Shown here one piece after another: positions 1 through 63,824 of a stretch of 64,000 nt of DNA. The position numbers and the translations under genes were made by a program. This DNA comes from a virus (taxonomy: Duplodnaviria; Caudoviricetes). The notes below the pieces were generated by a model. It searched no databases, was not told the origin of the DNA, and saw nothing but the letters and a program-made list of their open reading frames with translations. The first letter of the stretch is position 1, and each line of letters starts with the position of its first letter. The stretch covers positions 42,643 to 106,642 of IMG/VR virus record IMGVR_UViG_3300046615_000177. One strand, 5' to 3'.

Positions 1-377
1 AGGTCCGATATGCGGCGCTTGGCGTTACCCATCCAGCCCTGCTTCGACTTTGTCAGGTCGTCTACATAGGTCTCATACTCTAAAGTGAATGCCTTCTCGG
101 TGTCCAGATCGTCAACGTTTAGGCCCAGCGCAGCAAATATGTCGGCCATACGCTGAGCGCTGGCTTCCTGAAGCTCTTCGTATAATCCGTCCTCTGCCTG
201 CCCCAGCAACTCGTCTCCGTTACGCTCCCACATGTTGTGCTCGTCGCCCCTGCCCGCTATTACGTTCATAACCTTCGGAAGCTCCATGGCCTGACGGAGA
301 GTAACCAGTATCTGCTCCCGCACTTCAGCGGGAGCTTGTTGGATGTCCTTCGGAAGCTGGATGTTTAGTTTGTTCAT
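1..377 (-). CDS. Partial ORF running off the window (MNKLNIQLPKDIQQ...), probably a head morphogenesis/structural protein
   Basis: Open frame from ATG at 377, ATGA overlap with the preceding gene; two genes downstream of the portal. Confidence 0.6.
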   Translation of the reverse strand, partial: MNKLNIQLPKDIQQAPAEVREQILVTLRQAMELPKVMNVIAGRGDEHNMWERNGDELLGQAEDGLYEELQEASAQRMADIFAALGLNVDDLDTEKAFTLEYETYVDDLTKSKQGWMGNAKRRISD

Positions 378-601
378 AGCGCACCTGCTGGTTCACTTCG
401 GAAGGTATAGCCATTTAGCGACAGGACGTATATAAATCCCGGTAGCTGAGCTGCGGGTACTGTAAATACGATGTCGGTCGCTGCATCCTCTCCATCCAGC
501 ACGTCGTCGATCTCGATGGTGACGACATAGTACTCAGGATGTTCGAGGGCGATAACAGCTTCTGACTCTTGGCTAAATCGGTTGTAGCTCTCCATTCCCA
601 T
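374..601 (-). CDS. Hypothetical protein
   Basis: RBS AAGGGAGG; tight packing with neighbours. Confidence 0.7.
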   Translation of the reverse strand: MGMESYNRFSQESEAVIALEHPEYYVVTIEIDDVLDGEDAATDIVFTVPAAQLPGFIYVLSLNGYTFRSEPAGAL

Positions 602-620
602 GTGTGAACCCTCCCTTGGT

Positions 621-2552
621 TTAGTAGTTATCCCAGCTAATCACGATGTTCAGCGTGGTGCCTTCTTCGTCTTCGGAAGCCAGCGACTTCTTCAGCGGGG
701 CAGGCTTGCCCTTCTGCTTGACCTTTTCCAGTTCCATGTCATGCTTGTGCGCCAGCTTCATCTTCTCCAGCTCTTTCTCGTGCTGATCGTCCGGGTCCGG
801 CTTGTCGTCGCCCTTGGACTTATCAGCCCCATCCTTCGCCTTGTCGCCGTCTGCCTTGGCTGACTTCTCTTGCATCTTGGCAGCGTTATCGGCCTTCAGC
901 TTCTCCATCTTAAGCTGGTGCTCCTGATCGGCCTGCTTCTGTTCCATGGTCTGCTCGTGCTGCTTATCCAGCACTTCGAGTTGCTTGCCGTGCCCGTCAT
1001 CCTGCATCTCCAGCGCTTTACCGTGCTGGTCGTCTGCGGAGGCCTGCTCTGCTTCTGGATCGTCCGGGTCGGCATTCGGGTCTGTCTGCTGCCCCATCCC
1101 GCTCTCTGCCATGTACACCTGAATCAGCGTAGCGTTGGCCGGAGCATTTGCCCACTTCGGAAGCTCTCCGCCGTTCTGCTTTTTGATCTCGTCGATGTCC
1201 ACGTCGTTCTCTGCCCACACCATGGCGACCGTCTTCACACCGGAGTTGATCTGCTTCTCTTGGCGCTCCATCTTCCGGTCCTCGTCGTCTTCGTCCAATC
1301 CCACCCAGTAGAAGGCGTACTGGTCGTCGATCTGATCGACAATCTCGGAATTGAAGGTATCGGAGAGGAAGTTCATCAGTGGAATGAGGCCCTTGTCCTT
1401 GGACTTATCCATCTTCTCTTCGGTGTTGTCAGACTGGCTCATGCCCCCGCTCTTGCTCGTCCAGCTCTTGAATCCTACCTCGTTCGGGTCGATCTGATAG
1501 ACCGCGCACGCGATGTTAAACAGGAACTCCAGAAACTCGTTAAACTGCATGTCTTGGTTGGACTGCTTCAGCGGTGTCCACTGGAACCCGGAGCCTTCCT
1601 TGGAGGCCATGATAGGCACAGCCCACTTTCCGGCAGCACCGCTTGTGAGCTGCTTCCAGTGGCGCTTGAACCCTTCGAGCGTCTTGTCATCATAGCTACC
1701 GACGAAGGACAGAACGCCCTGCGGCAGGTGGCTATGAGTGAAGTATGTCGTATTGTAGCGTACGCCGTTGACGATGCCGCTCACAATCTCCACCAATACC
1801 TCCAGCTCTGACATTCCGAAGTCCGTGGTCATGATGTCGGTGCGCGGGTTACGGATAGCGTAGGCCAACTCTTCCTCTGTGTACTCTGCCACAATCTGAC
1901 CGCTGATACGCTGTACGTAAGCAATGTCCCCGGCTATCTTCTTGCCCCGGTTAGTCATGGGGTCGTACACCACAGGCTCGAACGCATCCGATACAGGCGA
2001 GTTGCTAACTAGCTCAATGGTCGAGCCATCAAGCGCCCACATCTCCGCCAGATTGCCTCCAATGGTTGGCACGGTCTCAATGGTCACCACGTCGAGGGTC
2101 AGCGTGTCGTCCACGATCTTCCGAAGGAAGGTGTTAAAGTTGTCCTTGCGCTTGCGGTTCTTGGCGTAGCCTGTCTTCAGGAAGAACTCTTCAATCTCGT
2201 GGGCCTTCTTGGCCTGCGCCTCCGTCATCTTCTCTCTGGAGTCCTTCAGGCCGATCTTGAATCCGATGTCTCCGTCGAACCGTGGACGCCGTGCATGTCG
2301 GCTGACTTGGTTCTTCCGGGTCAGCAGGATTGCCGCAATCGCCGGGACCTTTGCCATCGCCCGCAGGGTTCCGAATGGTATGATTGACTGCTTCGACCGT
2401 GTACCACCTACACCGTAGCTGTTGGCTGGGTCGATGATGGCTGACTTTGGCTGTGCAGCTTGGCGCTCCTGCTCTTCCTTCTCTGCGGAGAGTGCCTTGT
2501 GAAGCTGCTGGCCGTATGGTGCTTTCTCCCACATCTCTAAAATGTTATCCAC
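621..2552 (-). CDS. Phage portal protein with a long charged, low-complexity C-terminal tail
   Basis: Portal-like segments (NFNTFLRKIVDDTLTLD, IRNPRTD..FGMSELE, DMQFNEFL..IACAVYQIDPNEVG); downstream of the terminase; GTG start after AGGAGG. Confidence 0.9.
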   Translation of the reverse strand: MDNILEMWEKAPYGQQLHKALSAEKEEQERQAAQPKSAIIDPANSYGVGGTRSKQSIIPFGTLRAMAKVPAIAAILLTRKNQVSRHARRPRFDGDIGFKIGLKDSREKMTEAQAKKAHEIEEFFLKTGYAKNRKRKDNFNTFLRKIVDDTLTLDVVTIETVPTIGGNLAEMWALDGSTIELVSNSPVSDAFEPVVYDPMTNRGKKIAGDIAYVQRISGQIVAEYTEEELAYAIRNPRTDIMTTDFGMSELEVLVEIVSGIVNGVRYNTTYFTHSHLPQGVLSFVGSYDDKTLEGFKRHWKQLTSGAAGKWAVPIMASKEGSGFQWTPLKQSNQDMQFNEFLEFLFNIACAVYQIDPNEVGFKSWTSKSGGMSQSDNTEEKMDKSKDKGLIPLMNFLSDTFNSEIVDQIDDQYAFYWVGLDEDDEDRKMERQEKQINSGVKTVAMVWAENDVDIDEIKKQNGGELPKWANAPANATLIQVYMAESGMGQQTDPNADPDDPEAEQASADDQHGKALEMQDDGHGKQLEVLDKQHEQTMEQKQADQEHQLKMEKLKADNAAKMQEKSAKADGDKAKDGADKSKGDDKPDPDDQHEKELEKMKLAHKHDMELEKVKQKGKPAPLKKSLASEDEEGTTLNIVISWDNY

Positions 2553-2581
2553 TGTCCTGTCCTCCTTTTCTCCCCGTATCA

Positions 2582-2623
2582 ACAAAACAAGGGCTTCGGA
2601 AGCCCGTAGACTCCGAAGCCCCT
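2582..2623 (-). terminator. Intrinsic terminator-like hairpin whose stem contains a CTTCSGAAG copy
   Basis: Minus strand GGGGCTTCGGAG-N8-CTTCCGAAGCCCT followed by TGTTTTGTT. Confidence 0.55.
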
Positions 2624-2633
2624 GCTTCAGTGC

Positions 2634-2846
2634 TTAGTGATTTGCCCGACCGTGGATGTGTCCACAACTTGGGCAATGCTTTTCACCAGTCACGGAAGGC
2701 GCACGCTTCGTGCTAGTAATGCCTCTCGGCACCGCCAGCACTCCACAGGCTGCGCATTTCACCTTGGATGGAGACGTGTCTTCCGACTTGTCTGTCATCA
2801 GGCGAGTGGTTCCGTACTGATTACCGCCCTTGCTCGCTTGCGTCAT
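2634..2846 (-). CDS. Small zinc-ribbon protein
   Basis: CAAC...CPSC pairs; RBS present. Confidence 0.6.
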   Translation of the reverse strand: MTQASKGGNQYGTTRLMTDKSEDTSPSKVKCAACGVLAVPRGITSTKRAPSVTGEKHCPSCGHIHGRANH

Positions 2847-2893
2847 ATGAGCACCCCTTTCCGCTTATCGCGCCACTATCATACCAGCAACGG

Positions 2894-3424
2894 TCACACT
2901 TCGGAAGTGTTTTGTTTATGGGCTAAATTCCTTGCCATCACCTTACCACTACATACGCATTTATCAGTGCGGTGCTTGCAGTAGTGAGAGGAGTTACACT
3001 CCGCCGCCCAGTAGGCATCGGACTCTGCTACTTCGGAGAAGCCCATCTTAGCCATGATCATGTCGGAGGTCACTTCTCCCGGATACTCTAACGGGTGAAC
3101 CCAGCATTCCACGAACACGGTCTCACCTACTAATCCCTCCAGTGTCAGTGCAGCGAGCCTGCTGCCTATGCCTCTACCTCGGAAGGCAGGGTGCAGGGCT
3201 ATCACCTTCCAGTCTACGAGACCACTCCCGGCACGCACTGCGATGGAAACACCGACGACTTCAGAACCATCGCCAACTACCCACGCCTGCACCGCTCTGC
3301 TAAGCATGCGCTCTGTGTCTTCCAGCGTGTGCGGGTAGCTAAAGTAAATGTGAGCCTTCAGCAGGGCGTTGATCCCCGCAACGTGGGATGCCGTGGCTGC
3401 ACTAATGTACTCCATCGGAGGCAT
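2894..3424 (-). CDS. GNAT-family acetyltransferase with a Cys-rich C-terminus
   Basis: Acetyl-CoA-binding motif IALHPAFRGRGIGSRL; late KMGF motif. Confidence 0.8.
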   Translation of the reverse strand: MPPMEYISAATASHVAGINALLKAHIYFSYPHTLEDTERMLSRAVQAWVVGDGSEVVGVSIAVRAGSGLVDWKVIALHPAFRGRGIGSRLAALTLEGLVGETVFVECWVHPLEYPGEVTSDMIMAKMGFSEVAESDAYWAAECNSSHYCKHRTDKCVCSGKVMARNLAHKQNTSEV

Positions 3425-3812
3425 CTTCTTTCAGCACGTCCTCGGTATCGAACTTCGGAACCTTGTGAATTACGGCCTCCGCTTTCAGGAAGTAACACCA
3501 CAGCGGCTGCACGGTCTCATACTCCGTAACGAAAGGCCTGCCGTAGTGGTGGGCGTTTACAGGTATGCGCAGGATACCATCCTGCCGGAAGCGAGCCATC
3601 ATGGTGGCGACGTTGGCAGCGCCCCACACGCCTCGGATGTTCTCTGGATTAAACGTCTCAAACTCCTTCATGCCATACACCACGAAGTATTGATCGTCGA
3701 AGAAGTCGGCCGGAGCAGTCACCATCTCGAAAGTCTCCACAGCCTTGCGGTTGTACTGGGCAATCTTCAGAAGGCCATCGCCTCCACCCGGAACGATGTG
3801 GTCACCACTCAT
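3402..3812 (-). CDS. Hypothetical protein
   Basis: ATGA-coupled start (MSGDH) with RBS. Confidence 0.6.
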   Translation of the reverse strand: MSGDHIVPGGGDGLLKIAQYNRKAVETFEMVTAPADFFDDQYFVVYGMKEFETFNPENIRGVWGAANVATMMARFRQDGILRIPVNAHHYGRPFVTEYETVQPLWCYFLKAEAVIHKVPKFDTEDVLKEDASDGVH

Positions 3813-4195
3813 GCTTCCACCTGCTCCCCGTTCAGGAGCTTTTCGAGCTTTCCACACACTTGCGCAGCTCCGTGGGTCAGGCCCTGCACTGCGTAACGAC
3901 GGAACGAGGTAGGATCGGAGCTGCGAGGGGCGTGTGCTCCCCTGCGGTCGCCTATGAGTTCACGCACACCGTCCATCTCTGGGCAAGTCACCGTCAGCAT
4001 GTGGTCTGAGTGGTTGTCTCTTCCGAAGCCTTCCATCTGGGATATCTCATGTATTGCCCGGTCGAACTCTTTACGTACCCGGCCTACGTACTGGCTAACC
4101 GTCTCGTCTGCCACAGTCTCCTGCCAGTCCTCAAATACATGAGTTACTGCGTCCACTGCCTCTTCTCCGTGCGCCTTGACTGTAATTGTGGTCAT
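3809..4195 (-). CDS. Hypothetical protein
   Basis: RBS AAAGGAG; coupled to the next gene. Confidence 0.65.
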   Translation of the reverse strand: MTTITVKAHGEEAVDAVTHVFEDWQETVADETVSQYVGRVRKEFDRAIHEISQMEGFGRDNHSDHMLTVTCPEMDGVRELIGDRRGAHAPRSSDPTSFRRYAVQGLTHGAAQVCGKLEKLLNGEQVEA

Positions 4196-4218
4196 GCATA
4201 CCAGCTCCTTTGTGTTGG

Positions 4219-4956
4219 TTATTTTAGCTCGCCTAGCGTGATGCCGATCTTATCCGCCCACTGGGACACCTTGCCCCGGTAGTTGTTCGGAAGGTCGACG
4301 GTAGCTGTGAAGCTCTTCTTACTCATGTGCTTCTGGTAGACTTGGAAGGCTATTAGCCGTTCCGTGCCGTACCGTTCTACCTTGCCGTCGACTTGCTCAC
4401 TGTGCCCGATGACTATGCCCCGGCTCCGGTCGTCGTGCAGGCGAGTCAGGATTAGCTGAAGGTCGACCGCGCTCCGGGCATTCTGGGCCTCGTCTATGAT
4501 CAGGTAGGTGCGCTTGTTGCGCCCGCGCATGTAAGTATCCGTAACCATTTCGAGCGTGCCCTTGGCGCATAGCTCTGCTACCACTTCAGGCTGCAAGCCA
4601 CACTCGGCCAGCGCCTCGTAGAATGGGGCCATCATAGGCCGTACCTTATCCTCCACGAACCCCGGCAGGTAGCCAAGGTTGCCGCTGCGTGGGTCTGGGA
4701 ATCGCATGTAGGTAATTTGGTCGACTTGACCACTACGAAGCATGTTTAGACCTTCCATGACGGCGACCGTTGTCTTCCCGGTACCTGCGGGGGCGTCGAC
4801 GAAGGTGACGATATGCTTGCGGATAGCCTCCACATACGTCCGCTGATAAACGTCGAGCTTCTTCCACAGCCTGTCTGTGTGCCCGGCGTTCATCAGGGCC
4901 GCTATCGCCTTGTCTTCCTTCGTGGTCTCAACTACGTGTAACTTGGGCTTCGACAT
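4219..4956 (-). CDS. phoH: PhoH-like ATPase
   Basis: APAGTGKT Walker A, LGYLPG, YMRGR, IIDEAQN, LTRL. Confidence 0.9.
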   Translation of the reverse strand: MSKPKLHVVETTKEDKAIAALMNAGHTDRLWKKLDVYQRTYVEAIRKHIVTFVDAPAGTGKTTVAVMEGLNMLRSGQVDQITYMRFPDPRSGNLGYLPGFVEDKVRPMMAPFYEALAECGLQPEVVAELCAKGTLEMVTDTYMRGRNKRTYLIIDEAQNARSAVDLQLILTRLHDDRSRGIVIGHSEQVDGKVERYGTERLIAFQVYQKHMSKKSFTATVDLPNNYRGKVSQWADKIGITLGELK

Positions 4957-4975
4957 GCTGAACCCTCCCAGTGAG

Positions 4976-5344
4976 TTATACTTCTTCCCCTTGCTCCGCT
5001 CTCAGGGCCTTGTCCACCGAATCCCGCAACGCTATGAGCTGTGCAGTGCTCAGCAGCTCCAGCGGAGCGGTATGTGGGATAACCAGTAACCCCAAGTGCG
5101 TACCCGCCTGCTTGTTCATTTCCTGCCATGCCCCTCGAAGGTTGTCCAGCTCCTGCATGGTCATCTCTTGGTTGATGACGTACATACCTTGGCGGGCTAG
5201 AACCTGCGGCTGGATAGTGAAGGTGGTGCTTACCAGCTGCTCCGGCTGCGTAACGGTCGTGACGATAATCGGCGGCAGGTGATGCATGCTGTCTCCCCAT
5301 TCTACTTCCTTGCCCATATTTACCAGCTCCTTTGTCCGCATCAT
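4976..5344 (-). CDS. Hypothetical protein
   Basis: ORF fills the gap in operon orientation. Confidence 0.55.
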   Translation of the reverse strand: MMRTKELVNMGKEVEWGDSMHHLPPIIVTTVTQPEQLVSTTFTIQPQVLARQGMYVINQEMTMQELDNLRGAWQEMNKQAGTHLGLLVIPHTAPLELLSTAQLIALRDSVDKALRAEQGEEV

Positions 5345-5471
5345 ACAACGAAGCCCGCCTGCTGGGAATCCCCAGTTGACGAGCTTCGGAAGTACTACTG
5401 TGCTCCGCCTTGGATGTCCTGCTCTCTTGCCGCCTCCGCCTTATCCTTTACCCACGCCTACCTCCAACTCC

Positions 5472-13278: not shown

Positions 13279-13950
13279 TTATCCCGCATCTTCGCCACCA
13301 TCAGACTTCGGAAGCTCGAATGGGTTAGCTACTAACAGCTTGTGCTCCCAGCTCATGGCGTTGTACGTCTCATGGCATTCCGTGCAATTGCACGAGTTGA
13401 CAATTACTTTTTCTTTTAGGTCATAGTTACCCCTCAGGGTGTCCCCCAGTAGAGCGTCGCATCGGGCGCAGCTTACCTGCGCCATGGATGTGCGGACAAC
13501 GTTGCTGTGCCCCAGTATGGCGCACACCACAGCAGGCGTGCGAGGATCGGATAGGGTCAGGCCAAGCTGCGCCAGCAAGTGCAGGAGCTGGTGACTTCCG
13601 TAGATGCCCGCCTCTTCCTTGACGGTGACGGCCTTGTCATCCCAGTACTCATGCGCGTAGATTTTAGGACTCCGGCCCTCAAACCAGCGGAATGTCGACG
13701 GGTGATGCTCGTTGAAGTACTTAATCGGCAGGTTGTACTCCTTGATGACCTGCTTGGCATCCTCCAGCTTATAGCCTGAGCGGCAGGTCCACAGCACGAA
13801 CTCCGTGTGCGGGTTGGCGGCGAGCTGCCCTTTCATCCGGTCAACCGTGGACTGAATAATGTGGCCTTTGGTAATGTCCGGCCAGCCGCCAGCATAGATG
13901 CAGTCATCGAAGTCGATAGCGATAATGTACAGCGGGTCGCGCTCTTTCAT
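13279..13950 (-). CDS. HAD-superfamily hydrolase fused to a Cys-rich zinc-binding region
   Basis: IAIDFDDCI (motif I), LWTCR (motif II), PK..YWDDKA (motifs III/IV); CARC and CNCTEC. Confidence 0.75.
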   Translation of the reverse strand: MKERDPLYIIAIDFDDCIYAGGWPDITKGHIIQSTVDRMKGQLAANPHTEFVLWTCRSGYKLEDAKQVIKEYNLPIKYFNEHHPSTFRWFEGRSPKIYAHEYWDDKAVTVKEEAGIYGSHQLLHLLAQLGLTLSDPRTPAVVCAILGHSNVVRTSMAQVSCARCDALLGDTLRGNYDLKEKVIVNSCNCTECHETYNAMSWEHKLLVANPFELPKSDGGEDAG

Positions 13951-13978
13951 AGGCTCGTTCCTCGTTTCGTAGTATTTA

Positions 13979-14527
13979 TTAAGGTCTTCGGAAGTTAAGG
14001 GTGTGCTGCGGCCAAGCGCTCCGCGTGGCTTCGGGTTCGTTCTTCTCCCTCCAGCGCCTGTCGAGCTGTTCACATTTCGCCTCCATCGCAGATGCGAGGT
14101 CAATGCCTAAGTAGTCTGCCGCGACTGCGATGTTCCACACCATGTCAGACAGCTCGTACCCGATAAGCCTCAGACGTATGTCGCGCGGCCCATCTTCAAT
14201 GCGGACCCCTTCTAACCGGATAATCTCCTTGGCTACTTCTCCAAGTTCGGAAGTAAGGTGCAGCATGCGGTTCGCTATGGGTACGTCGTACAGACCGTGC
14301 TGCTTGGCTGATTCAGCTACCCGCGCCTGATACTCACTCATTCCATACTTCGGAAGTTCGGCACTGCCACTCTTCGGAAGTACAGTGGGTAAGCAGTCAG
14401 AACAATAGTTGATTACCATGTCCACGCCGTGGGACTCTCCGCATACCTTGCATGTGCCACTTGGCACCGGGTGCCCTACCCATTCGTGCAGAGGCTTGCA
14501 CTTCTCGCAGTTACATATCTCTTTCAT
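13979..14527 (-). CDS. MazG-like nucleotide pyrophosphohydrolase with N-terminal Cys cluster
   Basis: LTSELGEVAKEI...ELSDMVWNIAVAADYLGIDL. Confidence 0.8.
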   Translation of the reverse strand: MKEICNCEKCKPLHEWVGHPVPSGTCKVCGESHGVDMVINYCSDCLPTVLPKSGSAELPKYGMSEYQARVAESAKQHGLYDVPIANRMLHLTSELGEVAKEIIRLEGVRIEDGPRDIRLRLIGYELSDMVWNIAVAADYLGIDLASAMEAKCEQLDRRWREKNEPEATRSAWPQHTLNFRRP

Positions 14528-14682
14528 TCTTGATCGTCCTCCTTTGATTCGTCCGTATTATGTTCGCTGTTGTACAGCCTCTCTGCCCGCTCCCGGGCGT
14601 CGGCCTTGCTGAAGGCAAATACGTTATACTTTTCGCCCTTGTGTATCACGGTGTACACACGCATCGGTAGCCACATGTTCAT
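14524..14682 (-). CDS. Small hypothetical protein (52 aa, below the ORF-track cutoff)
   Basis: MNMWLPMRVYTV...; ATGA overlaps at both ends. Confidence 0.55.
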   Translation of the reverse strand: MNMWLPMRVYTVIHKGEKYNVFAFSKADARERAERLYNSEHNTDESKEDDQE

Positions 14683-38913: not shown

Positions 38914-38974
38914 TTTACCAGCTCCTAAGTAATGGTGAAGGCTTCCAAACTTCGGAAGCCCTCCCGGTAGTATC

Positions 38975-41816: not shown

Positions 41817-44207
41817 TTATCTAATTGGGCATGCGCCGCTTTCGCAGTCTGCCCCTTCCAGCTCTACTTCCTGCCCGTGGTCGAACTTCCGAAGGATGTC
41901 CATATCGAAGTCGGACATCGCCGCCACCAGCTCGTCGTATCGTTCTGGGTTCTGCTCGTAAGGTGCGAGCTGATAGGACCCTCCGTCCTTCGCAAGGAAG
42001 GAGACTCCGACAAAGTCGTTCCAGTTGGTGTGCACGATCCCGGAAGCTACCATCCACTCTGAAGGGTCCAGCACGATAGTATTCGAGCTGTTGTGGTCGG
42101 TGTAGTGTGCTTGGAACCGGAAGTAGTTATCAAACTGCTGGTACACATCAACGTCCTGCTCGGTCAGCTTAGCCTCCGACTTAATAGGGAAGTCAACAAC
42201 CAGCGTCCGGGCGTTAGACAGCTTCTCAGCGTCCGTATCCCCTTCTGTACCCACTTCCGGCGACACTGTCCAGCCTGCATGCTCCTGCACAGCCTTCGCC
42301 AGCGGGTCAACTGAGTTGATGCGGATACGGCGTACGCCCTTCCGAACCTTGGCGAAGTGCAATCCGCTCGATCCTGCACCTAGTACCAACGTCAGCGTGC
42401 CCTCTGGCTTCACGGTAGTGACCAGCAACGGTGTAGGAACGCGCAGCTCACGGGCGTACGCTTCCGCCGTTACGTTAGCGGTCTCCCGCAGGTCATGCAG
42501 CAGGTCCGCTTCAGTCTCTTCAGAAGCTCCAATCTCGCCCATAGCATCCTTCCACCCGGTTAGACTCACGCCCAGCAGGACGTCCTGCTTCTGGCGCGCA
42601 TCCCAGTTCGGAAGTTCGAGGGTAACCAGCGTCATCCGAAGCCCCGCCCGCGTAGATAGTATCTGCGCGTCGATCAGTCCTTCGTAGTCCAGCCTACCAT
42701 TCTGCACGAACGCTTTGACGTTGATGGTAGTCAGGTTGCACACACCCTTGCTATACAGGTCAATCTCGCCGCACGGGTTCACCCCAAGGTAGTAGGCCAG
42801 AGCGAGGATCGCTTCCTCTGTTGGCTCCACGCCCAGACGGTTCAGGCGGCGGATAGCCAGCTCCCGGAGGTTGACGAAGCCCGGCTCGCCTTCCTTCTGC
42901 ATGACCTCGAATAGGAAGTCGAGGAAGCTCTGCTCTGGCTGGTGCAGGAATCCGATAGAGTTATTCGACATCCGGCGGTGGTGCAGGGCACGCTCTTCGT
43001 TGCAGGGGTACGGGTAGTACTCGATACCCTGTCTTGCAGCGTAGGCGATAGCTACATCTACATCTGGGGTCTTCAAGCGTACGCTGCCCTTATCGTCCTT
43101 GACGACATACCACTTCACGGCCAGTGTGTCCCAAAACGCAGGTACCGGAATACCCAGCGCTTCCATGCGGCCACGGAGATACTCATGATGGGCGAATCCT
43201 TCCTCGCCCCATATACCGTTAATGCCGTACTTGGCAAAGATGAATTCCCAATCATCGGCAGCACCAAGGGCAATTTCTGCCGTTCTGCGCACGCCTCCAA
43301 CTACAACGTTATAGCCGATCAGGTTGCACATATCCACCACATGAATGGGGCGCACCTTCACGTACCCATTACCGACATCCTCCAGCGGGGCGAGGAACGG
43401 GTCGATTTGGTTGTTCAGGACTTTCATAAAGCCCTCGAACATCTCCATCAGCGGGATGTGCCCGGACGCAGTGCCTCCGAACGTTTTCAGCGCCTCCCCG
43501 TTAGGGCGCACCCAGTCATAGTTGAAGACGATGGTCTTGATACTTGCGTATTGCGCTTCGGTCAGTATTTGTAAGAACTTCCGAAGTGCATCCACCCATC
43601 CTTCCTTGCTGTCACCCACTCGGATATAGGCTGTTGTTAACACGGCCTGTGTGATAAGGTCGGTCTTATCCTCGCGGTCCCACTTCGGAACTGGTTCATA
43701 GGAGTCATGCACGACCTTCACGTTGCTGCGGATTGGGGCAAGTTTCGCTGCCATTTCCGGGATGCTCTTAAATCCGACGCCCGTACCTACGAGCAGCAGG
43801 TAGAAGGCTTCCGCGAGGTCTTCCCACGTTTCGGTGATCGTAAAGGAGCAGTTGAAGTTCGCCAGCGGGTACTTGTCAGCTACGCCGTTCTCGGCTCCAC
43901 CTACCCACATTGTGCGCCCAGATAGGGCCTGCTTCAGCCCGAACATGTTGTCAAACAACATCCGAAGCTCTTTGCGCATGCGTTCGCGCGGGATCGGAAG
44001 GCCAAGCTTCAGGCGGTGCTTCATTTCAAGTCCTACGCTGTATGTTGAAGCCCGCAGCACTGTCTCCCGGAAGAATTCCCGGCGCTTCTCGCGTGGTAAC
44101 GGACGTGAATATGTTCTGAGGTACGTAAACTTTCCAATAGGTGTCATATGGTCCGGGAACTCCGGGTATTTCGCGACTTCCTCGGCTGACAGTTCGATAT
44201 CTTTCAT
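41817..44207 (-). CDS. nrdJ: Class II (adenosylcobalamin-dependent, monomeric RTPR-type) ribonucleotide reductase
   Basis: RTYSR, NFNC, VVVGGVRRTAEI, NPCGEI, CNL, VKPEGT, C-terminal CESGACPIR. Confidence 0.92.
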   Translation of the reverse strand: MKDIELSAEEVAKYPEFPDHMTPIGKFTYLRTYSRPLPREKRREFFRETVLRASTYSVGLEMKHRLKLGLPIPRERMRKELRMLFDNMFGLKQALSGRTMWVGGAENGVADKYPLANFNCSFTITETWEDLAEAFYLLLVGTGVGFKSIPEMAAKLAPIRSNVKVVHDSYEPVPKWDREDKTDLITQAVLTTAYIRVGDSKEGWVDALRKFLQILTEAQYASIKTIVFNYDWVRPNGEALKTFGGTASGHIPLMEMFEGFMKVLNNQIDPFLAPLEDVGNGYVKVRPIHVVDMCNLIGYNVVVGGVRRTAEIALGAADDWEFIFAKYGINGIWGEEGFAHHEYLRGRMEALGIPVPAFWDTLAVKWYVVKDDKGSVRLKTPDVDVAIAYAARQGIEYYPYPCNEERALHHRRMSNNSIGFLHQPEQSFLDFLFEVMQKEGEPGFVNLRELAIRRLNRLGVEPTEEAILALAYYLGVNPCGEIDLYSKGVCNLTTINVKAFVQNGRLDYEGLIDAQILSTRAGLRMTLVTLELPNWDARQKQDVLLGVSLTGWKDAMGEIGASEETEADLLHDLRETANVTAEAYARELRVPTPLLVTTVKPEGTLTLVLGAGSSGLHFAKVRKGVRRIRINSVDPLAKAVQEHAGWTVSPEVGTEGDTDAEKLSNARTLVVDFPIKSEAKLTEQDVDVYQQFDNYFRFQAHYTDHNSSNTIVLDPSEWMVASGIVHTNWNDFVGVSFLAKDGGSYQLAPYEQNPERYDELVAAMSDFDMDILRKFDHGQEVELEGADCESGACPIR

Positions 44208-47111: not shown

Positions 47112-50100
47112 CTATGCCACCTTGATTCCGGCCAGCTCATACATATGCATGTATGGCTCGATCATCTCGTAGGTCACGTCCATGGCTTCCTTCTTGACCT
47201 TCTTAGGCTTCACGTATGGATTGCCGTGCTCGTCCCATTTCAGGTCTAGGGCAGTGTCCCACGTTGCCCCAATAGCAGGCTCGGCTACAATCGGCATGAT
47301 GTCGCTAAAGCCGTCAATAGGGCGCTCCATAACCTCCTGAATAAACATAGCTGCCTCAACCGCATGCTCTACAGGGGCCTGCCCCTGAAGCTCGTCATGA
47401 ATCTGCATATGCATCGAAAGTGCTGGACAACGGTGCTGCTCCTTACGGATGTTGACCATCGCCAGTGCGATGATGTCGGCCGCAGAGCCTTGGATAGGTG
47501 TGTTCATACAGATGTTCTCTGCCTTCTGCCGCACCCACTGGTTACTATCATTGATATGAGGCACTGGGCGGCGATGGTTGAACATCGTAGTTACATAGCC
47601 ATTCTTACGAGCAAAGGAAATCATCTCGTCGGCGTACTCTCGCACTCCCGGGAACGTCGCCATGTAGTCCGCGATGAATTTTTTGGCTTGGGCGACAGTC
47701 ATGCCCATTGCGGGGTCCTTCGCTAGTCCAAACTCTGTCATACCGAACACGATTCCGAAGTTGACCTTCTTGGCGCGGTACCGATGGGACTTGAACAACT
47801 CTTTGACCTCTTCCAACAGGCAGGCCAGCTTGAACACCCGGTGCGCTACCCAAGCATGCAGGTCTCCCCCGGAAGCGAGGGTATTGATCATACCCATCTC
47901 CCGGGCAAACCACGCCAGCACCTTCAGCTCAATCTGCGCGTAGTCAGCTCCGATGTAGAACACGTGGCCGGACAGCTTTTGCTTGACGATGAAGTGCCAC
48001 GTCTTGGCGGTGAAATCGTTCAGCTTGTCCGGCGTGATGATCTCTCCGCCTGCAAATAGCTGCTCGGTCTTCTCCTTATCCGCCAGCAGAATGCGCTTGT
48101 CCGGCAGAATAATCTCCCCGGAAGGCGGAAGGAACGGTGCTACGAAGACCGACCGGATGCCCATAGGGTCATTATCGGGGCGCGGGATATTCTGAAGGTT
48201 CGGTTTCTTTGACGACAGCCTCCATGTGTTGACAAGGTTCAGTGCGGTATGGAGCCTGTCCGTGTCTGTCCGGCAGAATGGGAGCATTCCGTTAACGTAC
48301 GTCGAGTTGATCTTGTCGTACTTGGACTTCTCCTTCAGAATCTTCATGAATGGGCTATCACCGTCGTAGTTCTCAATGAAGCGGTCGACGGTCTCCGCGT
48401 TTGTCGTCGGAAGGCCAGAGTCTCCGCGCTGCACTCCCTCCAGCGGGAACTTCAGAATGTGGTAAAACAGCCACTGCCGATGCCCCGGACTCGCCCAGTT
48501 GAACGGTTTACCCTCCTTGATGAACAGGGAGATAGGCGCTTTACTGCGTTCACCCTTCTTACGTCCCTCACCCATTGGGTACTCTCCGGCAGGTACAATG
48601 ACGTTCTCGCGGCCCAACTCTTCGTCGTATACGACCTCAGCATGCGGAACAATCTCGATCAGCTCGTCGTTCAGAAGGCTCTCCAGCCCTTTGATACCTG
48701 CGTCCGTGCTCGCATTTGGGTCGCCCTTCAGCGCCTTCATTGCTACCTGCTTCAAGGCGAACAGTCTATCGCGGCTGACGTGCCACCCAGTTAGTTCGTA
48801 CTCTGCCAGCACCATCATGCGCGGCACGTCAAGTTCGAACATGACCTCCATAACACCCGTCGCTTCAGCCAATGGCAGTAGGTAGTAGTAGAGTCCCAGC
48901 GCCCAGTCGGAGTCGGACGCGCCATAGTCAATAGAGTGCTTATCTACAGGAAGCTCATTGAACGTCCGGCTGCGGGAGTGCTTTGATACCTTGGCTTTTT
49001 TCTGGCCTTTTTTAGCCCCGGATTTGTAGTGGCCCATAGACTCCTCCCAGTACTCCGTGGTCCACTCATGCTTTCCGACCGTATCCTTAAAACTCTTAAT
49101 CTCGTCGATGCTCAGTAGCCCATGCACCATACCGTGCTCGTCGGCCAGCAGCGCCTTAGTTGCAGGCTTCAAACCTACCCGAACCTCGTAGGACTCACCG
49201 TCGAACTCGGTGTTTTCGGGCAGGGCCAGCAGCTTCACCATCAGCATGGTGTCCACTACCTTATGCTTCAAGGCTTTGTGGAAAAAGTCGATCCCGTGCG
49301 TCAGGCTCCACTGGTACTCTGCCTTGATGTTGTGGGCAATCAGCAGGATGTCCGGGTCTTCAAGCAGCGGCTTCAGGAAGATGCTACGCAGCTCCTGCCA
49401 GTCCCAATTGGCCCCGTAGTTGTCATGCCTGATCGGTAGATAGACCGCAAACTTCAGCTTCCATGTGAAGGAAACCCCGACGATGTAGTGGTCCTGCGGG
49501 TCTGTCGTATCGTCGTCGGGGTCTCCGTTGGTTTCATAGTCGAACGCCATAACTTGATGGAGGATGATCTGCGCTTTGTAGTACATCAGCGCCTCTCGGT
49601 CATTCTTTCCTACTGCGATGTAACCGTCCGGGATCGGCTCGGCCAATACGTTGTGACCGCCCTTCAGAAGTGCCTCAGCCTGCGAGGGGTTAAGCTTGGC
49701 AGGCTTTACAGGTGCCCCGGGAGGTACCGGACGTGACGGTCTTGGCGGTATACCCATCGCTTTTGCAGAGTTGTCGTACGCCTGCTGCGACGATAGCTTG
49801 TTGACAACTTCCTGCGCACCCTGCTGCGTGGCCGTAGTGATAATGTCCGCTACCGGGCTTCTGAAGCTGTCTACCTGTGCCCTCACGGCCTCCAGCGCCT
49901 GATCGTTCACGGCTTCCTGCCGCATTCCCGGAGGAACAGGACGCTTCGGTCTTTGTGGCCTCGCAGGAGCCGCTGTGGTGGCTTGTGGTGGTGCTGGCTC
50001 CGCCTTTACCGACACTTCACCCTGCGGCGTCCATATCGTCGCTGGCGCGGGTGCTGGTGGCACTGGCCGGGTGACCATTGCCGGAGTGTTCTTCCGATTT

Positions 50101-50489
50101 ACCCCTATACCGTCCGTGGATAGCACAGACTCACCGGGCTGTCTACCACTACGCTGCGCGGCGATCTTGGCCTGCGCGTCTCTTAAACTCAATGCTACCA
50201 GCTCCTTGTTGTTCCTTAGTTCGACCAAAACATCTCCGTGGCACGCCTCTGGCTTACAGAAGCACCCCAGCACCTTACCGTCTAGCTCTCCGGCCAGCAG
50301 CGCCTCCAGCAGTGGTATCTGGGTCAATATCCATTCCCGGTACCTCTGGATGGATTCTGCACGGGTTTTTACCCGGTAGAGGGCCAGCGTGCCGGACGTA
50401 TGTGAGAAGGGGTTACCCCACTTGCTACCGCGTCCGATGTACACGTCGTACACTGCACCGAAGTGCCGCTTATTGACGACCTGCTTCAC
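47112..50489 (-). CDS. polA: Family A DNA polymerase with N-terminal DUF4326 domain, Pro-rich linker and 3'-5' exonuclease
   Basis: DUF4326 YIGRGSKWGNPF...LGCFCKP.CHGDVL; exonuclease AFDYET/AHN; RLSSKKPNLQNIP, motif A ADYAQIEL, motif B R.RAKKVNFG, motif C QIHDEL. Confidence 0.93.
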   Translation of the reverse strand: MKQVVNKRHFGAVYDVYIGRGSKWGNPFSHTSGTLALYRVKTRAESIQRYREWILTQIPLLEALLAGELDGKVLGCFCKPEACHGDVLVELRNNKELVALSLRDAQAKIAAQRSGRQPGESVLSTDGIGVNRKNTPAMVTRPVPPAPAPATIWTPQGEVSVKAEPAPPQATTAAPARPQRPKRPVPPGMRQEAVNDQALEAVRAQVDSFRSPVADIITTATQQGAQEVVNKLSSQQAYDNSAKAMGIPPRPSRPVPPGAPVKPAKLNPSQAEALLKGGHNVLAEPIPDGYIAVGKNDREALMYYKAQIILHQVMAFDYETNGDPDDDTTDPQDHYIVGVSFTWKLKFAVYLPIRHDNYGANWDWQELRSIFLKPLLEDPDILLIAHNIKAEYQWSLTHGIDFFHKALKHKVVDTMLMVKLLALPENTEFDGESYEVRVGLKPATKALLADEHGMVHGLLSIDEIKSFKDTVGKHEWTTEYWEESMGHYKSGAKKGQKKAKVSKHSRSRTFNELPVDKHSIDYGASDSDWALGLYYYLLPLAEATGVMEVMFELDVPRMMVLAEYELTGWHVSRDRLFALKQVAMKALKGDPNASTDAGIKGLESLLNDELIEIVPHAEVVYDEELGRENVIVPAGEYPMGEGRKKGERSKAPISLFIKEGKPFNWASPGHRQWLFYHILKFPLEGVQRGDSGLPTTNAETVDRFIENYDGDSPFMKILKEKSKYDKINSTYVNGMLPFCRTDTDRLHTALNLVNTWRLSSKKPNLQNIPRPDNDPMGIRSVFVAPFLPPSGEIILPDKRILLADKEKTEQLFAGGEIITPDKLNDFTAKTWHFIVKQKLSGHVFYIGADYAQIELKVLAWFAREMGMINTLASGGDLHAWVAHRVFKLACLLEEVKELFKSHRYRAKKVNFGIVFGMTEFGLAKDPAMGMTVAQAKKFIADYMATFPGVREYADEMISFARKNGYVTTMFNHRRPVPHINDSNQWVRQKAENICMNTPIQGSAADIIALAMVNIRKEQHRCPALSMHMQIHDELQGQAPVEHAVEAAMFIQEVMERPIDGFSDIMPIVAEPAIGATWDTALDLKWDEHGNPYVKPKKVKKEAMDVTYEMIEPYMHMYELAGIKVA

Positions 50490-59922: not shown

Positions 59923-59946
59923 CACTAATCGACTCCTTTCCCCAGC

Positions 59947-59992: not shown

Positions 59993-60016
59993 AGGCAAAT
60001 AAAAAAGGGTCAGGCG

Positions 60017-60334: not shown

Positions 60335-60722
60335 AAACGATCTTCCCTTCTGAAGTAAGTGCCGGGGAGCGCCCGACCAGCGTAAGCATCCATTCCAAGA
60401 AGTCCGGGTCTCCTTGCTCCAGCCCGTACTTATTCTGGATGAACAGCATCTCCTGCGTGTACTTATCGCGGTCAACCTGCTCGTCTTGGGACGTCTTCGG
60501 AACCCTTCCGAACAGCCGCATCATGAACTCATTGTACGCAGTGTTAATGCGGTTGTCCATCTTCTTCCTGTCCTCGATCTCCACGTATATCACACCTTCC
60601 GAAGCTCGTCTTATGGTTAAGGTGGTGGATGGTAGTCCCCGAATGGCGATGTGTGCTGTAACAGTATCCTCTGTCAGTCGCATCGTGTGGCTTGATGTCC
60701 CAGTCACAATAATTTCTGGCAT
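60261..60722 (-). CDS. Hypothetical protein
   Basis: TAATG coupling with the upstream gene. Confidence 0.55.
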   Translation of the reverse strand: MPEIIVTGTSSHTMRLTEDTVTAHIAIRGLPSTTLTIRRASEGVIYVEIEDRKKMDNRINTAYNEFMMRLFGRVPKTSQDEQVDRDKYTQEMLFIQNKYGLEQGDPDFLEWMLTLVGRSPALTSEGKIVYDTGRTTGNIPAMGEAPFGEAERQ

Positions 60723-61438
60723 TACACATCCACATCCCATAGTTTATTTGCGCCTCGATTGTAAAAGTCCTTCGTCGAGATGCCGCATCCAATACACTTA
60801 TCACTACCCACGTAGGTGAAGTTCTCAAACACCATCCAGTCTGCGCAGTAGCAGCACCATAGCACTGCTCCCCGGTGCACGTACGCAGGCTTGCTCGTCG
60901 AAGATGGGGCCTCCTGTACAACTTTCCTGCTGTAGGCATCCTTCCGAAGTAAGGGAACAAACAGGTCAACCCGGTGCGTGTTCAGGCGCTGCCACAGCGC
61001 GTGCCGCTCCGCGATGTTCATCTCGCGGAACTGCGCCATGCTTACCTGTTCGGCTTCCGGGATCGGATGACTTCGTCGAGGTTCACCTGCTGTGGCGCTG
61101 CTCCGGGTGGGAACAGTAGCGACCGCAGCTTCCGGCTCCGCTCCAGCTTCTCCTTGGATTGCGTGGTTAACTTCCTGCCTTTGCGCTTCATCCTCTACCT
61201 CCTTCGGAAGTGTAGCTACAGGTGGTGCCGGGCGCTTCGGGGGCGCTGGTCTTGCTGGGCGGGCAGGCACCGAACCTAGCAGATCGGTCGTGGGCCGCGC
61301 CACAATACTACCTGTGGTCGGTGCGGTTAAAGGTGAAGTCATCGGTGGCGCCGGACGTCTCGGCGGTGTAGGTCGAACTACTGTCATAAGTGTTTCCCCC
61401 ATTGAACGAATTTTCGATATGAACGTTGACTTCCGCAT
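60722..61438 (-). CDS. Pro/Arg-rich protein with a C-terminal zinc finger
   Basis: WCCYC...KCIGCGIS..DF; RPAPP repeats; start uncertain. Confidence 0.65.
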   Translation of the reverse strand: MRKSTFISKIRSMGETLMTVVRPTPPRRPAPPMTSPLTAPTTGSIVARPTTDLLGSVPARPARPAPPKRPAPPVATLPKEVEDEAQRQEVNHAIQGEAGAEPEAAVATVPTRSSATAGEPRRSHPIPEAEQVSMAQFREMNIAERHALWQRLNTHRVDLFVPLLRKDAYSRKVVQEAPSSTSKPAYVHRGAVLWCCYCADWMVFENFTYVGSDKCIGCGISTKDFYNRGANKLWDVDV

Positions 61439-61537
61439 TGGTCTCGGAACTGCGACCGCTCCCCAGCATGTCGCGCAGACCCGATATCATCAGCCTCATA
61501 CAAAGGTACGCCGTGAGGCACATTATCATGAACCCGA

Positions 61538-61978
61538 TCACAGCCCTAAAACCTTGCGACGGAACTCGTCAATCGCTTCTCTCGCCATCTTCCGCTGGTT
61601 TCGTGTGCTGGCTGTGCCCTCATATTCTTTGGCGTCTGTCTCCCGTATAGTGTTCGTGGATGGTGCCCATCGCAGTATTTCGGTTCCACGGTACAGGAAA
61701 TGATAATCGCCACGAGTCCCGGGAGGTGTAGGCTCCCCATTGACCTCTGTAATGTTCGCCAACTTCACCTCGATGTTGCCGCGTTCAGCCCGGTACCCGA
61801 TTAGGGTCTCCACCATCATCCGCGCTCTTGACTTCCGAAGCGTGATTCCCTTGGCTTCGTGAGGAAACTTCATGAAGTACTCCCACGCCAGTGCCTGCGC
61901 CTTGGCCTCCCCTACCATGTCTGCTATGTCCTCGCGCTTCGTGCCGTAAACGTTTGAAAATGGTGTATTCTCTTCCAT
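61538..61978 (-). CDS. Hypothetical protein
   Basis: RBS AAGGAG. Confidence 0.65.
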   Translation of the reverse strand: MEENTPFSNVYGTKREDIADMVGEAKAQALAWEYFMKFPHEAKGITLRKSRARMMVETLIGYRAERGNIEVKLANITEVNGEPTPPGTRGDYHFLYRGTEILRWAPSTNTIRETDAKEYEGTASTRNQRKMAREAIDEFRRKVLGL

Positions 61979-62044
61979 CGGTAATCCGCTCCTTGGTCTG
62001 GTTTAAGATAACCCGCACCGTAGTCGGTGCGGGCCTCATTTGGT

Positions 62045-63745
62045 CTACTCTGGCAGCTTAAAGGTGCCAGCATTAAAGTCGATGCTGTATTTCGTAATCT
62101 TACGGGTTAGCGACGTATATGGTATGCCCAGCAGCTCTCCCGCCTTACGGATGCTCCCGGCCTTTGCGTAGGCGTCGATGACGGCCTGCGGGTCGAACTC
62201 GTCGACCGGGACAGGTGCGGGTGGAACTGCCGTTGGCACAGGCTGTGCAGCCGGGAACTGTACGACGTTATCTTTCTTAGCGGCCTTACCAGCTGCTACC
62301 CGCGATTTCCTCCCTGACTCCACCTCTTGGGTAGCAGGAGGCTCCTGCTGGGTGATTACAGCCTTCGTCGACGGCGTCTCAACTAGCGGTGGCGTTTCTG
62401 CCTGCGGCGCTGTAGGCGGTGCCAGTGGCTTCTTCTTGCTGGACCTACTCGCAGACTTCGGAACATCCGGCATTGTGTAGGCAACCCAGTAGCGATGCCC
62501 CCAAGCGTAGGCGTTGTGCCCCTTCTGATACACGCCCTGCTCCAGTACTAAAGGGTGTTCTTCTGGGACGTCGCGGTCGCTCAGCTCCGCAACGAATTTA
62601 TCCTTCAGGGACTTTTTAGGGAACCGGACAAACTCTCCAAACTTCCCAGTCATCTCGTCCATGATCGCGTCCTGCCCCGGCTTCTCCACGTGAGAGAGCT
62701 TAACCTCAATGGTCTTAGCGTTTGGCCGCTGCTTATCCATCAGCACCAGCTTCCCAGAGCGTCCCTCTGATATACATTTCTGGCAGACGAACATGTCCAG
62801 CACATCCAGCCGGGTAGAGTAGATCGTGATCGGATACTTGTTGGTAGCTCTGCACCCACAAGCAAACTTGTGATTATAGCTCTGTGGCTCCGGCATGTTA
62901 GCCGGGTTACCTGTGCAGTTCGGACCATTGGCCGGGATGTTCACAATCGCGGCGTACAGCCGGAACTCGTTATTGTGGGTTTCCTTCGGCCGACGGCGCT
63001 GAAGTTCGGACTCGAATACAATCGCCTTGGATTCCGGGTCGATCTTCGGAATCTTGGTCATCTTCAGCTCTTCATCCTTAGCTCCCCGTTTGGCGTAGGC
63101 TACCTCGTCCTGCCATTGGTGAATCATCTCGTGCCGAAGTGTTTCAAAAATGCGCCCGTCCTCGTTAAGAGCTACAAAGTTTTGGTTGAACTTGATGTGC
63201 TGGTCGACCGCCATCGGGTCGCCTTCGTAGGTGTAGTTTCCCAGCGTCCGATTGTCCATCTTGTCGATGGTGATTACGGGAGTTGATAGTGCACCCTCGA
63301 AGAATGTTTCGTTGTATTCTGCGTGCTTCTCGTACAGCATGGCAATGAATTTATTCTTCCTCGACAGCAGCGTCCGCAGGGCTTCCTTCACCCGCTCCTT
63401 GGAGACTTCGATGATTTCCTGCTCCGCATCCTGACTATCCGGTTCTGCGCCATCCTCTGGCGCCCAATCGTCCGCTTCTCTCAGCCGCTCCGCTTCTGTT
63501 TTTATGAACGCCCTCAGCTCGTCTACCCATGCCTTACCTGCGTTGCGGCGGTCAACTCCGTACGCCTTGTTATACTGGATACCGGAGATAGTAGCCACCT
63601 CGTAGGTGCCCTCTTCGATCTTGTAGCCCAGTTCGAGCGCCTGCTGAAGCACCTCGGCCTGCTTTTGGGTGATAACGGGAGTGTTTAGCTCCGGTGTGAA
63701 CGGCTTCTTAGCGGTGGTACTCGCTTGCGATTTAATTTTAACCAT
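62045..63745 (-). CDS. SprT-like zinc metalloprotease with a C-terminal helix-turn-helix
   Basis: YNETFF.GAL, LG.Y, TLRHEMIHQWQ, H...F; C-terminal GSIRKAGELLGIPYTSLTRKI. Confidence 0.8.
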   Translation of the reverse strand: MVKIKSQASTTAKKPFTPELNTPVITQKQAEVLQQALELGYKIEEGTYEVATISGIQYNKAYGVDRRNAGKAWVDELRAFIKTEAERLREADDWAPEDGAEPDSQDAEQEIIEVSKERVKEALRTLLSRKNKFIAMLYEKHAEYNETFFEGALSTPVITIDKMDNRTLGNYTYEGDPMAVDQHIKFNQNFVALNEDGRIFETLRHEMIHQWQDEVAYAKRGAKDEELKMTKIPKIDPESKAIVFESELQRRRPKETHNNEFRLYAAIVNIPANGPNCTGNPANMPEPQSYNHKFACGCRATNKYPITIYSTRLDVLDMFVCQKCISEGRSGKLVLMDKQRPNAKTIEVKLSHVEKPGQDAIMDEMTGKFGEFVRFPKKSLKDKFVAELSDRDVPEEHPLVLEQGVYQKGHNAYAWGHRYWVAYTMPDVPKSASRSSKKKPLAPPTAPQAETPPLVETPSTKAVITQQEPPATQEVESGRKSRVAAGKAAKKDNVVQFPAAQPVPTAVPPAPVPVDEFDPQAVIDAYAKAGSIRKAGELLGIPYTSLTRKITKYSIDFNAGTFKLPE

Positions 63746-63824
63746 CGGTGTACCCAGCTCCTTCAAGTTTGTTTAGGGCTTCCCCTAGTGGCACTAACAT
63801 TGTACTTCCGAAGAACATGCCAAC

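Follow-up and report, generated by a model that had tools for sequence, protein, structure and literature searches.

Introduction

Most of what is known of highly iterated palindromes comes from the chromosomes of cyanobacteria. HIP1 (GCGATCGC) and the alternate highly iterated palindromes of cyanobacteria are short, exact palindromes found at about kilobase or higher density; one-nucleotide deviations from HIP1 are biased to its first and last base, which has been read as the sign of an enzyme-driven process, the correlate by which Elhai defines such words is a cognate methyltransferase, and in the available part of that study their origin and role are still at the stage of models (PMC4390886). 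The subject of this work is a word of similar habit, the 9-bp palindrome CTTC-N-GAAG, in 64,000 nucleotides of a phage of the class Caudoviricetes (IMG/VR record IMGVR_UViG_3300046615_000177, positions 42,643 to 106,642). This stretch, hereafter the window, is the right-hand part of a source genome consisting of one 106,642-bp contig with 54.8% GC, here called G000. Like HIP1, as far as the available text on HIP1 goes, CTTC-N-GAAG is an exact short palindrome that occurs at very high frequency throughout the genome, coding DNA included, its variants are biased to the edges of the word, and related lineages have the word, another palindrome or none. Unlike HIP1, it is carried by a phage rather than a cellular chromosome, genomes sampled from the candidate host class show no enrichment of it, it has no conserved cognate methyltransferase, and it is of odd length with a free centre base.

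Palindromic sites spread over a replicon are also found in the ParB-parS, Noc-NBS and KorB-OB systems, where the sites have 14-16 bp and number tens per replicon. The word described here shares the palindromic form and the dispersal of these arrays and differs from them in having 9 bp and 150-190 copies, and in that no ParB or KorB protein tracks the sites. It is also unlike Chi-type hotspots, which are asymmetric, orientation-dependent and enriched in the host, since CTTC-N-GAAG is palindromic and not enriched in the genomes that we searched. The stoperators of Cluster A mycobacteriophages are asymmetric, transcription-oriented sites, 20-30 per genome, that are bound by the immunity repressor (PMC6550527). 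By the portion of the stoperator literature at hand, both kinds of array comprise many copies of one word throughout the phage genome, mostly off promoters, with variants between related phages. CTTC-N-GAAG differs from stoperators in being palindromic with a balanced centre, in its 79-191 copies per genome (five to ten times more), in lying largely within genes and in all frames, and in that no repressor link is known for it. Among the matches listed in a full-text literature search on the two 9-mers, which were of the primer type, and among the papers on highly iterated palindromes together with phage, which by title and abstract treat cyanobacteria or general topics, there was no description of CTTC-N-GAAG. 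We class the array among the highly iterated palindromes, as one that is carried by a phage, does not depend on a methylase, has been lost naturally in one lineage and can be linked to a few candidate genes.

Results

A strict 4-1-4 palindrome at high density

The first-pass annotation of the window had counted about 84 copies of CTTCSGAAG (S, C or G) and about 25 of CTTCWGAAG (W, A or T), and exact counting returned the same figures: 84 C/G-centred sites, the first at 273 and the last at 63805-63813, compared with 0.58 on average and never more than 3 in 100 dinucleotide shuffles, and 25 A/T-centred sites, where 0.44 were expected. Over the whole of G000 the 151 C/G-centred and 40 A/T-centred copies make 191 sites, about one per 560 bp, and CTTCSGAAG is by far the commonest 9-mer of the genome. 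The reported balance of the two centres is likewise real: read on the + strand, 41 sites of the window are G-centred and 43 C-centred, and the whole genome has 81 and 70, respectively. As an argument against an mRNA element this balance is weak, because a palindrome yields the same RNA word whichever strand is transcribed. Sites were said to occur in several frames and to encode different peptides, which agrees with the gene calls: the C/G-centred sites of G000 are distributed 66, 37 and 19 over the three frames of coding sequences (CDSs), where they encode LRK, LPK, xSEx and xF[GR]S, and 29 lie outside called CDSs; the sense-strand centre within CDSs is G in 56 cases and C in 66. Six intergenic sites had been described as hairpins. 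All six do lie outside called genes, and the hairpin part of the description stands for some only: by eye, the sites at 2594 and 7781 are in short stems, those at 29181 and 32560 are in loops of larger inverted repeats, and those at 38950 and 56690 show no obvious hairpin. At 22 of the 29 intergenic sites the palindrome does not extend beyond the word itself.

What is conserved is CTTC-N-GAAG, in a strict 4-1-4 arrangement. In the five motif-bearing genomes, namely G000 and its near-complete kin G001, G002, G003 and G005 (GC from 42.7% to 57.1%), the observed and expected copies are 191 and 9.8 (G000), 133 and 15.1 (G001), 134 and 6.5 (G002), 161 and 15.7 (G003) and 79 and 4.8 (G005), and spacings of 0, 2, 3 or 4 nucleotides as well as the everted form GAAG-N-CTTC are at background level only. 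The preference for the centre base varies by lineage, so that in the 43%-GC genome G005 A/T-centred sites (50) outnumber C/G-centred ones (29), and the bases flanking the word carry almost no information. Variants with one mismatch are few, apart from those at the outermost C/G pair: in four genomes the variant with G in place of the first C has 30, 28, 44 and 43 copies and position-1 variants total 45-90 per genome, compared with 1-11 for each inner-position variant. Sites occur once per 573, 604 and 643 bp in core, semi-core and lineage-specific genes, respectively, and at doubled density, once per 296 bp, outside CDSs. No orthologous gene is consistently depleted or enriched in sites, and the spacing of the sites is more even than random in three of the five genomes.

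Two shorter words are under-represented in G000, TTCGAA with 20 copies against 46 expected and CTTCGAAG with 3 against 10.8. TTCGAA is not avoided in G001 (187 against 194.6), which is the only relative with an N6_N4 methyltransferase (C1:40152-40787); the TTCGAA pattern may reflect restriction avoidance on the one side and self-methylation on the other. The excess of the 8-mer CTTCGAAG in G001 (68 observed, 35.9 expected) was judged to be an effect of composition.

Selection on the word

The enrichment persists when codons are shuffled among synonymous positions, a control that the first-pass annotation had named as able to refute the signal. In 100 synonymous-codon shuffles of the minus-strand gene calls, which were used since the caller of open reading frames (ORFs) had probably mis-called some plus-strand ORFs, the 120 C/G-centred CDS sites fell to 9.2, and all CTTC-N-GAAG sites in CDSs from 160 to 16.0; codon permutation leaves about 1.5 CDS sites, and cruder gene calls agreed across four genomes. 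The codons of L-[PR]-K tripeptides are as skewed as had been suspected: LRK is written CTT-CGG-AAG in 93% of cases, compared with 4.3% expected from codon usage. The distortion extends to the proteins themselves, for there are 43 LRK tripeptides where residue-shuffled proteins have 8.5 (17 at most in 200 shuffles). LRK and LPK are over-used about 5-fold, and LPK, LQK and LLK are distorted in the manner of LRK, a pattern present in all five genomes.

The related phages that the annotation had proposed to examine carry the word as well, with enrichment in five further lineages spanning 43-57% GC. Proteins of the kin are about 50% identical to those of G000, and 55-60% of nucleotides agree when codons are aligned; in three comparisons 16 of 62, 15 of 51 and 18 of 49 G000 sites were found at the same codon-aligned position, compared with about 0.06 expected if the sites were independent. 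Where the encoded residues are identical, the eight specified nucleotides are kept in 13 of 16, 11 of 12 and 14 of 14 motif windows, against 11-19% of other windows. Three to four sites per genome pair persist despite protein change, including flips of the C/G centre that exchange arginine and proline. Twelve holders of the phage are listed among sequencing runs, all of them as contigs and none as RNA; no molecule ends or nicks at the sites are reported for them, as is to be expected of contigs. None of the 40 differences listed (of 788) falls in the 12 motif sites of window positions 1-5553, where about 0.8 would be expected, too few to discriminate.

Judged from these comparisons of sequence, CTTC-N-GAAG is very probably a selected DNA-level site. 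The word is not explained by base composition, codon usage or host ancestry, its even spacing together with the doubled non-coding density suggests selection on placement, and it appears to be maintained even at the cost of altered proteins.

The word in candidate host chromosomes

A motif inherited from the host should be equally frequent in host chromosomes, and this was not the case in 430 Bacilli genomes, among which the true host may not be included. G010, the prokaryote genome used as anchor (3.9 Mb), has 26 copies compared with 20 for a reversed-word control; counts in 29 members of its family range from 9 to 76 and follow the control; and in an even sample of 401 genomes from its class no genome exceeds 125 copies (in 7.1 Mb), the densest having about one copy per 20 kb. 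The word is at least 30 times rarer in the genomes searched than in the phage, and a host-derived motif was rejected for the genomes searched.

Loss of the word and of a gene block

A scan with the HTH_17 protein (HTH, helix-turn-helix) surfaced three contigs, G424, G425 and G426, that belong to the same phage group and have the word at background level only. G424 and G425 have 71%, 64% and 53% identity to G000 in the large terminase TerL, the MCM helicase and the polymerase PolA, respectively (tblastn), and the MCM helicase of G426 is identical to that of the G424/G425 lineage. CTTC-N-GAAG occurs 2, 2 and 1 times in G424, G425 and G426 (controls 2, 1 and 0), and G424 and G425 have no other iterated palindrome. 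In an MCM tree, which is midpoint-rooted only, the three group with motif-bearing G005 (support 94/99), within the motif-bearing set. We compared 40 G005 sites in genes that align gap-free with G424: 16 of the 40 are at the same column in at least one of G000-G003, and G424 keeps none of these 16 shared ancestral sites, with 1-6 mismatches at each. Given the MCM tree, this reads as decay of ancestral sites.

The first-pass annotation had suggested that presence of the word be correlated with gene content. When G000 genes with matches in at least three of the four motif-bearing kin were screened by tblastn, g21, g127 and g128 were present in all four kin and missing from G424, G425 and the distant relative G427 described below, and g8 and g126 showed the same pattern with presence in three of the four. 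The candidate g21 was discarded as an antisense artefact of ORF calling. What tracks the word is therefore the contiguous early-gene block g126-g127-g128 (window 60722-63766) and the small gene g8 (Table 1). The gene order g128-g127-(g126)-g125...g123 is kept in all five motif-bearing genomes, whereas the g125 homologues of G424 and G425 lie well inside their contigs and have nothing related to the block beyond them. A profile search with g128 recovered G001, G002 and G005 at E<=1e-175 as positive control and gave no match in G424 and G427. The 11 IMG/VR loci that encode a g128 homologue of full length, from about six lineages, all have 0.66-1.83 sites per kb, and a locus of another phage with the SprT domain alone has no sites. 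Among loci anchored on MCM, g127 and g128 are present in six of six motif-rich lineages that reach the position and in neither of the two motif-less ones; the metagenome scan with MCM returned no further motif-less lineage.

Table 1 Position of the palindrome array and of genes discussed in the text (window coordinates)
Feature	Position	Strand	Remarks
Dispersed CTTC-N-GAAG array	273..63813	.	84 C/G-centred and 25 A/T-centred sites in the window; all frames and intergenic
g126, 238 aa	60722..61438	-	no known family; between g125 and g127
g127, 146 aa	61538..61978	-	no known family; always adjoins g128; same presence/absence pattern
g128, 573 aa	62045..63766	-	SprT-like and HTH_50; candidate reader or effector
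Class II ribonucleotide reductase	41817..44207	-	
Family-A DNA polymerase	47112..50489	-	N-terminal DUF4326 (E 2.7e-18), then exonuclease and polymerase domains

Near the position of the block, G424 and G425 encode RepA_N and HTH_36/DnaD-like proteins instead, and a 570-aa ORF found there is unrelated to the block. A frequent word of these two genomes, AGCCTCTG, has 41 copies, 33 of them on one strand (L188-L196), and looks like a conserved ribosome-binding-site context, its sense form holding AGAGG, and not like a dispersed signal.

Another palindrome in a distant relative

G427 is a complete distant relative of 111,151 bp (L221-L226) whose MCM has 44% identity and which is placed outside the motif-bearing set on a long branch. 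It has neither the CTTC-N-GAAG array nor g126-g128. Its own iterated palindrome is GGGCGCCC, with 94 copies against 16.5 expected in G427 and 0-1 copies in seven other genomes, and the one-mismatch variants of this palindrome are concentrated at the outermost base. Neither a SprT-like gene nor a g128 homologue was found in G427, and its early region holds no recognisable family except an amidase.

The g128 protein

Spartan and IrrE are DNA-binding metalloproteases, and plasmid-encoded ArdC, which combines a DNA-binding domain with a Spartan/IrrE-like metalloprotease domain, overcomes type I restriction; ArdC binds single-stranded DNA non-specifically, and its protease activity is not needed for antirestriction (PMC7213743). 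The product of g128 matches the Pfam family SprT-like PF10263 with 34.4 bits (cut-off 25.6) and begins with a SprT-like core, after which come an additional alpha/beta domain, a linker of low complexity and, at the C-terminus, an HTH of the Fis/TyrR type (Pfam HTH_50; the match to the TyrR homologue 1g2h is weak, E 0.03). The conserved core comprises residues ~114-440 with the HExxH motif, and HEMIHQ and five cysteines are invariant or nearly so in 32 members of the family. This family has 41 clusters with 43-72% identity, its best name being 'predicted SprT family Zn-dependent metalloprotease', and no relatives were found in 50,697 cultured-phage records. An AlphaFold2 model of the core has a mean pLDDT (predicted local distance difference test) of 82.7, and the top Foldseek matches are human Spartan 6mdw (probability 1.00, E 1.3e-3) and 6mdx (0.99, E 3.5e-3), over 198-205 alignment columns with low TM-scores of 0.27 (query) and 0.45 (target). 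The front part of the modelled core appears to resemble the SprT domain of Spartan, and the protease core would presumably be DNA-dependent and of the zinc type. Like Spartan and ArdC, g128 has a core with HExxH and conserved cysteines, for which the human Spartan SprT domain is the top fold match at a borderline E-value; unlike them, it has the extra alpha/beta domain and a C-terminal HTH, and the accessible text on Spartan and ArdC describes no sequence-specific DNA word (PMC7213743). The neighbouring g127 has no match in Pfam, PHROG or NCBIfam.

Discussion

On the best reading of the array, the word serves a protein to mark the entire chromosome of the phage, by putative binding. We tentatively favour CTTC-N-GAAG as a selected, phage-specific recognition word in double-stranded DNA that is possibly read by the products of the g126-g128 block. 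The reader is probably encoded by the phage; the narrower proposal that g126-g128 is the reader or effector is put forward with more reserve, as a candidate suggested by shared presence and absence. A classical HTH dimer would need more room than the 4-1-4 shape offers, and the reader may therefore have two-fold symmetry and clasp about 9 bp. We hypothesize that the sites address the g126-g128 module to the phage's own DNA every few hundred bp, and that the module would then act on phage DNA and not on the host chromosome, where the word, by the genomes searched, is rare. Such action might consist in stripping host proteins from the incoming or replicating phage genome. After loss of the module the sites would no longer be selected and would decay. 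A more detailed version of self-marking, which we consider unlikely as a whole, is that an early Spartan-like, DNA-dependent protease module directed by the ~190 palindromes clears or inactivates host defence or nucleoid factors on phage DNA only, and that among the kin the G424 lineage gave the system up and G427, with GGGCGCCC, exchanged both the word and its reader. The marking suggested by the first-pass annotation, against a nuclease or for packaging, is possible.

Several observations weigh against the favoured reading. The association between genes and motif amounts to two evolutionary events only, and, given that the G424 lineage is without 4 of 40 core genes and that 13 of the 40 were not detected in G427, about 1.3 core genes would match the loss pattern by chance. 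The grouping of G005 with G424 has 94% bootstrap (not starred) in a midpoint-rooted tree with G427 on a long branch. A g128-type protein is not required for palindrome arrays in this phage group, because G427 maintains GGGCGCCC without a g128 or SprT homologue. The g128 orthologue of G005 lacks the HTH, yet G005 keeps its 79 sites, and the E-values of the Spartan matches in Foldseek are borderline. The one-mismatch variants of the word and of GGGCGCCC at the first or last base resemble those of HIP1, and a host-encoded reader with few chromosomal sites is conceivable.

The bias of the variants would fit a HIP1-type drive, in which a biased repair or modification enzyme creates and keeps the palindrome and the sites need no function. 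We regard such a drive as rather unlikely. It would also fit the lineage-specific genes, which are as dense in sites as core genes, as a genome-wide drive would give, as well as the different palindromes of different lineages, which are like the 'alternate HIPs' of Elhai; the decay of sites after loss of the block is compatible with it too, since the block itself could be the drive. However, methyltransferases are not conserved in the five motif-bearing phages, where PF00145, PF02086, PF02384 and PF05869 have no match and PF01555 matches G001 only, and neither PF00145 nor PF01555 was found in G427, so that a phage methylase is not supported as the source of the methylation/repair process considered in the first-pass annotation (Vsr-type genes were not searched for in this weighing). 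A host-encoded version of the drive should mark host chromosomes, which none of the 430 searched genomes shows, and the even spacing and the doubled non-coding density favour selected placement. A host protein such as a regulator, nucleoid factor or segregation factor that reads the sites and is recruited or titrated by the phage would find 10-100 occurrences of a 9-bp word per host genome by chance, enough for a regulon. Even so, we give this explanation little credence, since the word is kept in phages of 43-57% GC that probably have different hosts, vanishes from a lineage set apart by phage genes it has lost, is replaced by a quite different word in the distant relative G427, and is not even mildly enriched over the control in any searched host genome.

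Proteins of the phage other than g126-g128 could read the word, the link with the block then being coincidental, as the number of chance matches among core genes would permit, and the candidates here are two of those named as possible binders in the first-pass annotation together with a ParB/Srx-like part of the virion polyvalent protein g36. The product of g116 (125 aa) is a strongly conserved winged HTH protein with weak ArsR/MarR/Fur-type similarity, that of g121 (86 aa) matches HTH_17 with E 2e-5, and g36 has a ParB_N match in all five phages that is below threshold in each (E 1.8e-5 to 0.014, none above the cut-off). Homologues of all three are present in G424 and G427, both without CTTC-N-GAAG (g36 with 41% and 28% identity), and G424 is without any other iterated palindrome; g116 and g121 therefore do not track the word and are disfavoured as readers, and a ParB-type reader was set aside, g36 occurring with or without the word. 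A ribbon-helix-helix protein, which had also been listed as binder, is not supported either, as RHH_1 has no match in the five phages, and the coding strand yielded no small ORFs (30-59 aa) that are conserved. We consider a reader among these other phage proteins quite improbable. It is very unlikely that the word acts as RNA, with CUUC-N-GAAG in every transcript read by an RNA-binding protein or RNase: the balance of orientations is compatible with such an element and a protein with a ProQ-C-like domain is encoded nearby (weak match, E 0.006), but a site on single-stranded RNA would have no reason for exact reverse-complement symmetry, a loop of 1 nt does not allow a 4-bp stem to form, there is no overall bias at the sense-strand centre, and the density is highest outside CDSs. 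The dispersed centromere for a TubZ/TubR-like cassette that had been proposed can practically be dismissed and would be at most a secondary use in G000. TubZ itself is genuine (Pfam Tubulin, E 5.6e-14), but TubZ and the TubR-like gene have no tblastn match (E<=1e-3) in G001, G002, G003 and G005, which keep the word at similar or somewhat lower density, and the TubR-like ORF has no family match.

The array is a compact and tractable case of iterated palindromes in a phage of about 100 kb, under selection strong enough to distort the proteome, and the coincidence of word loss with the loss of three genes narrows the open question to a few proteins. Should the Spartan-like module prove to be the reader, no sequence-addressed protease system on a viral genome would, as far as we could find, precede it, and it would represent a novel strategy against the host. 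Otherwise the clade is still a natural experiment on the creation, upkeep and erasure of genome-wide DNA words. In practice, such words can separate these phages from host DNA in metagenomes.

Phage genome, likely host and further observations

G000 encodes a gpA-type large terminase, a portal protein, a family-A DNA polymerase, an MCM-type primase-helicase, a class II ribonucleotide reductase (RNR), a tubulin homologue, a sigma factor and SNF2 helicases; no tRNA genes were found in it. Its IMG/VR relatives have terminase identities of 69-79%. The closest cultured phages by terminase are SPO1-like Herelleviridae at just ~31% identity, and the primase-helicase is closest to Bacillus phages (~37%). 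TubZ is closest to plasmid TubZs of Priestia, Clostridium and Bacillus (40%), and the RNR has 54% identity to a Bacillus phage RNR. No TerL relatives were found in 185,579 species genomes, and the sole RNR relative among species genomes is on a 5.3-kb contig of Thermoflavimicrobium dichotomicum (56%). From these similarities the host is likely to lie within the Bacillota. The RNR of G000 has only 22-25% identity to the RNRs of G001 and G003, which suggests that it was acquired independently of those of its kin. Direct terminal repeats of 30-127 bp, called by script, have no motif sites inside and may be assembly overlaps.

Just left of the window, two giant genes of the head module encode a 2321-aa protein (L140:10198-17163, -) with an SNF2 helicase domain and a faint match to sigma-70 region 3, and the 1161-aa polyvalent protein (L169:438-3923, -) with LPD1, a CLCA_X-like region and the sub-threshold ParB/Srx-like segment; both are kept in all relatives, motif-less ones included. 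The MCM primase-helicase frame of G003 (L129:15079-18519) has one in-frame stop in the translation check, for which sequencing error, recoding and a split gene are possible explanations. Genome positions 13600-15370 (L139), a 1.7-kb stretch 3' of a tape-measure-like gene and left of the window, are without a long minus-strand ORF; short plus-strand ORFs in this region are conserved at the protein level in G002 and G003 and may represent a mis-called or frameshifted gene.

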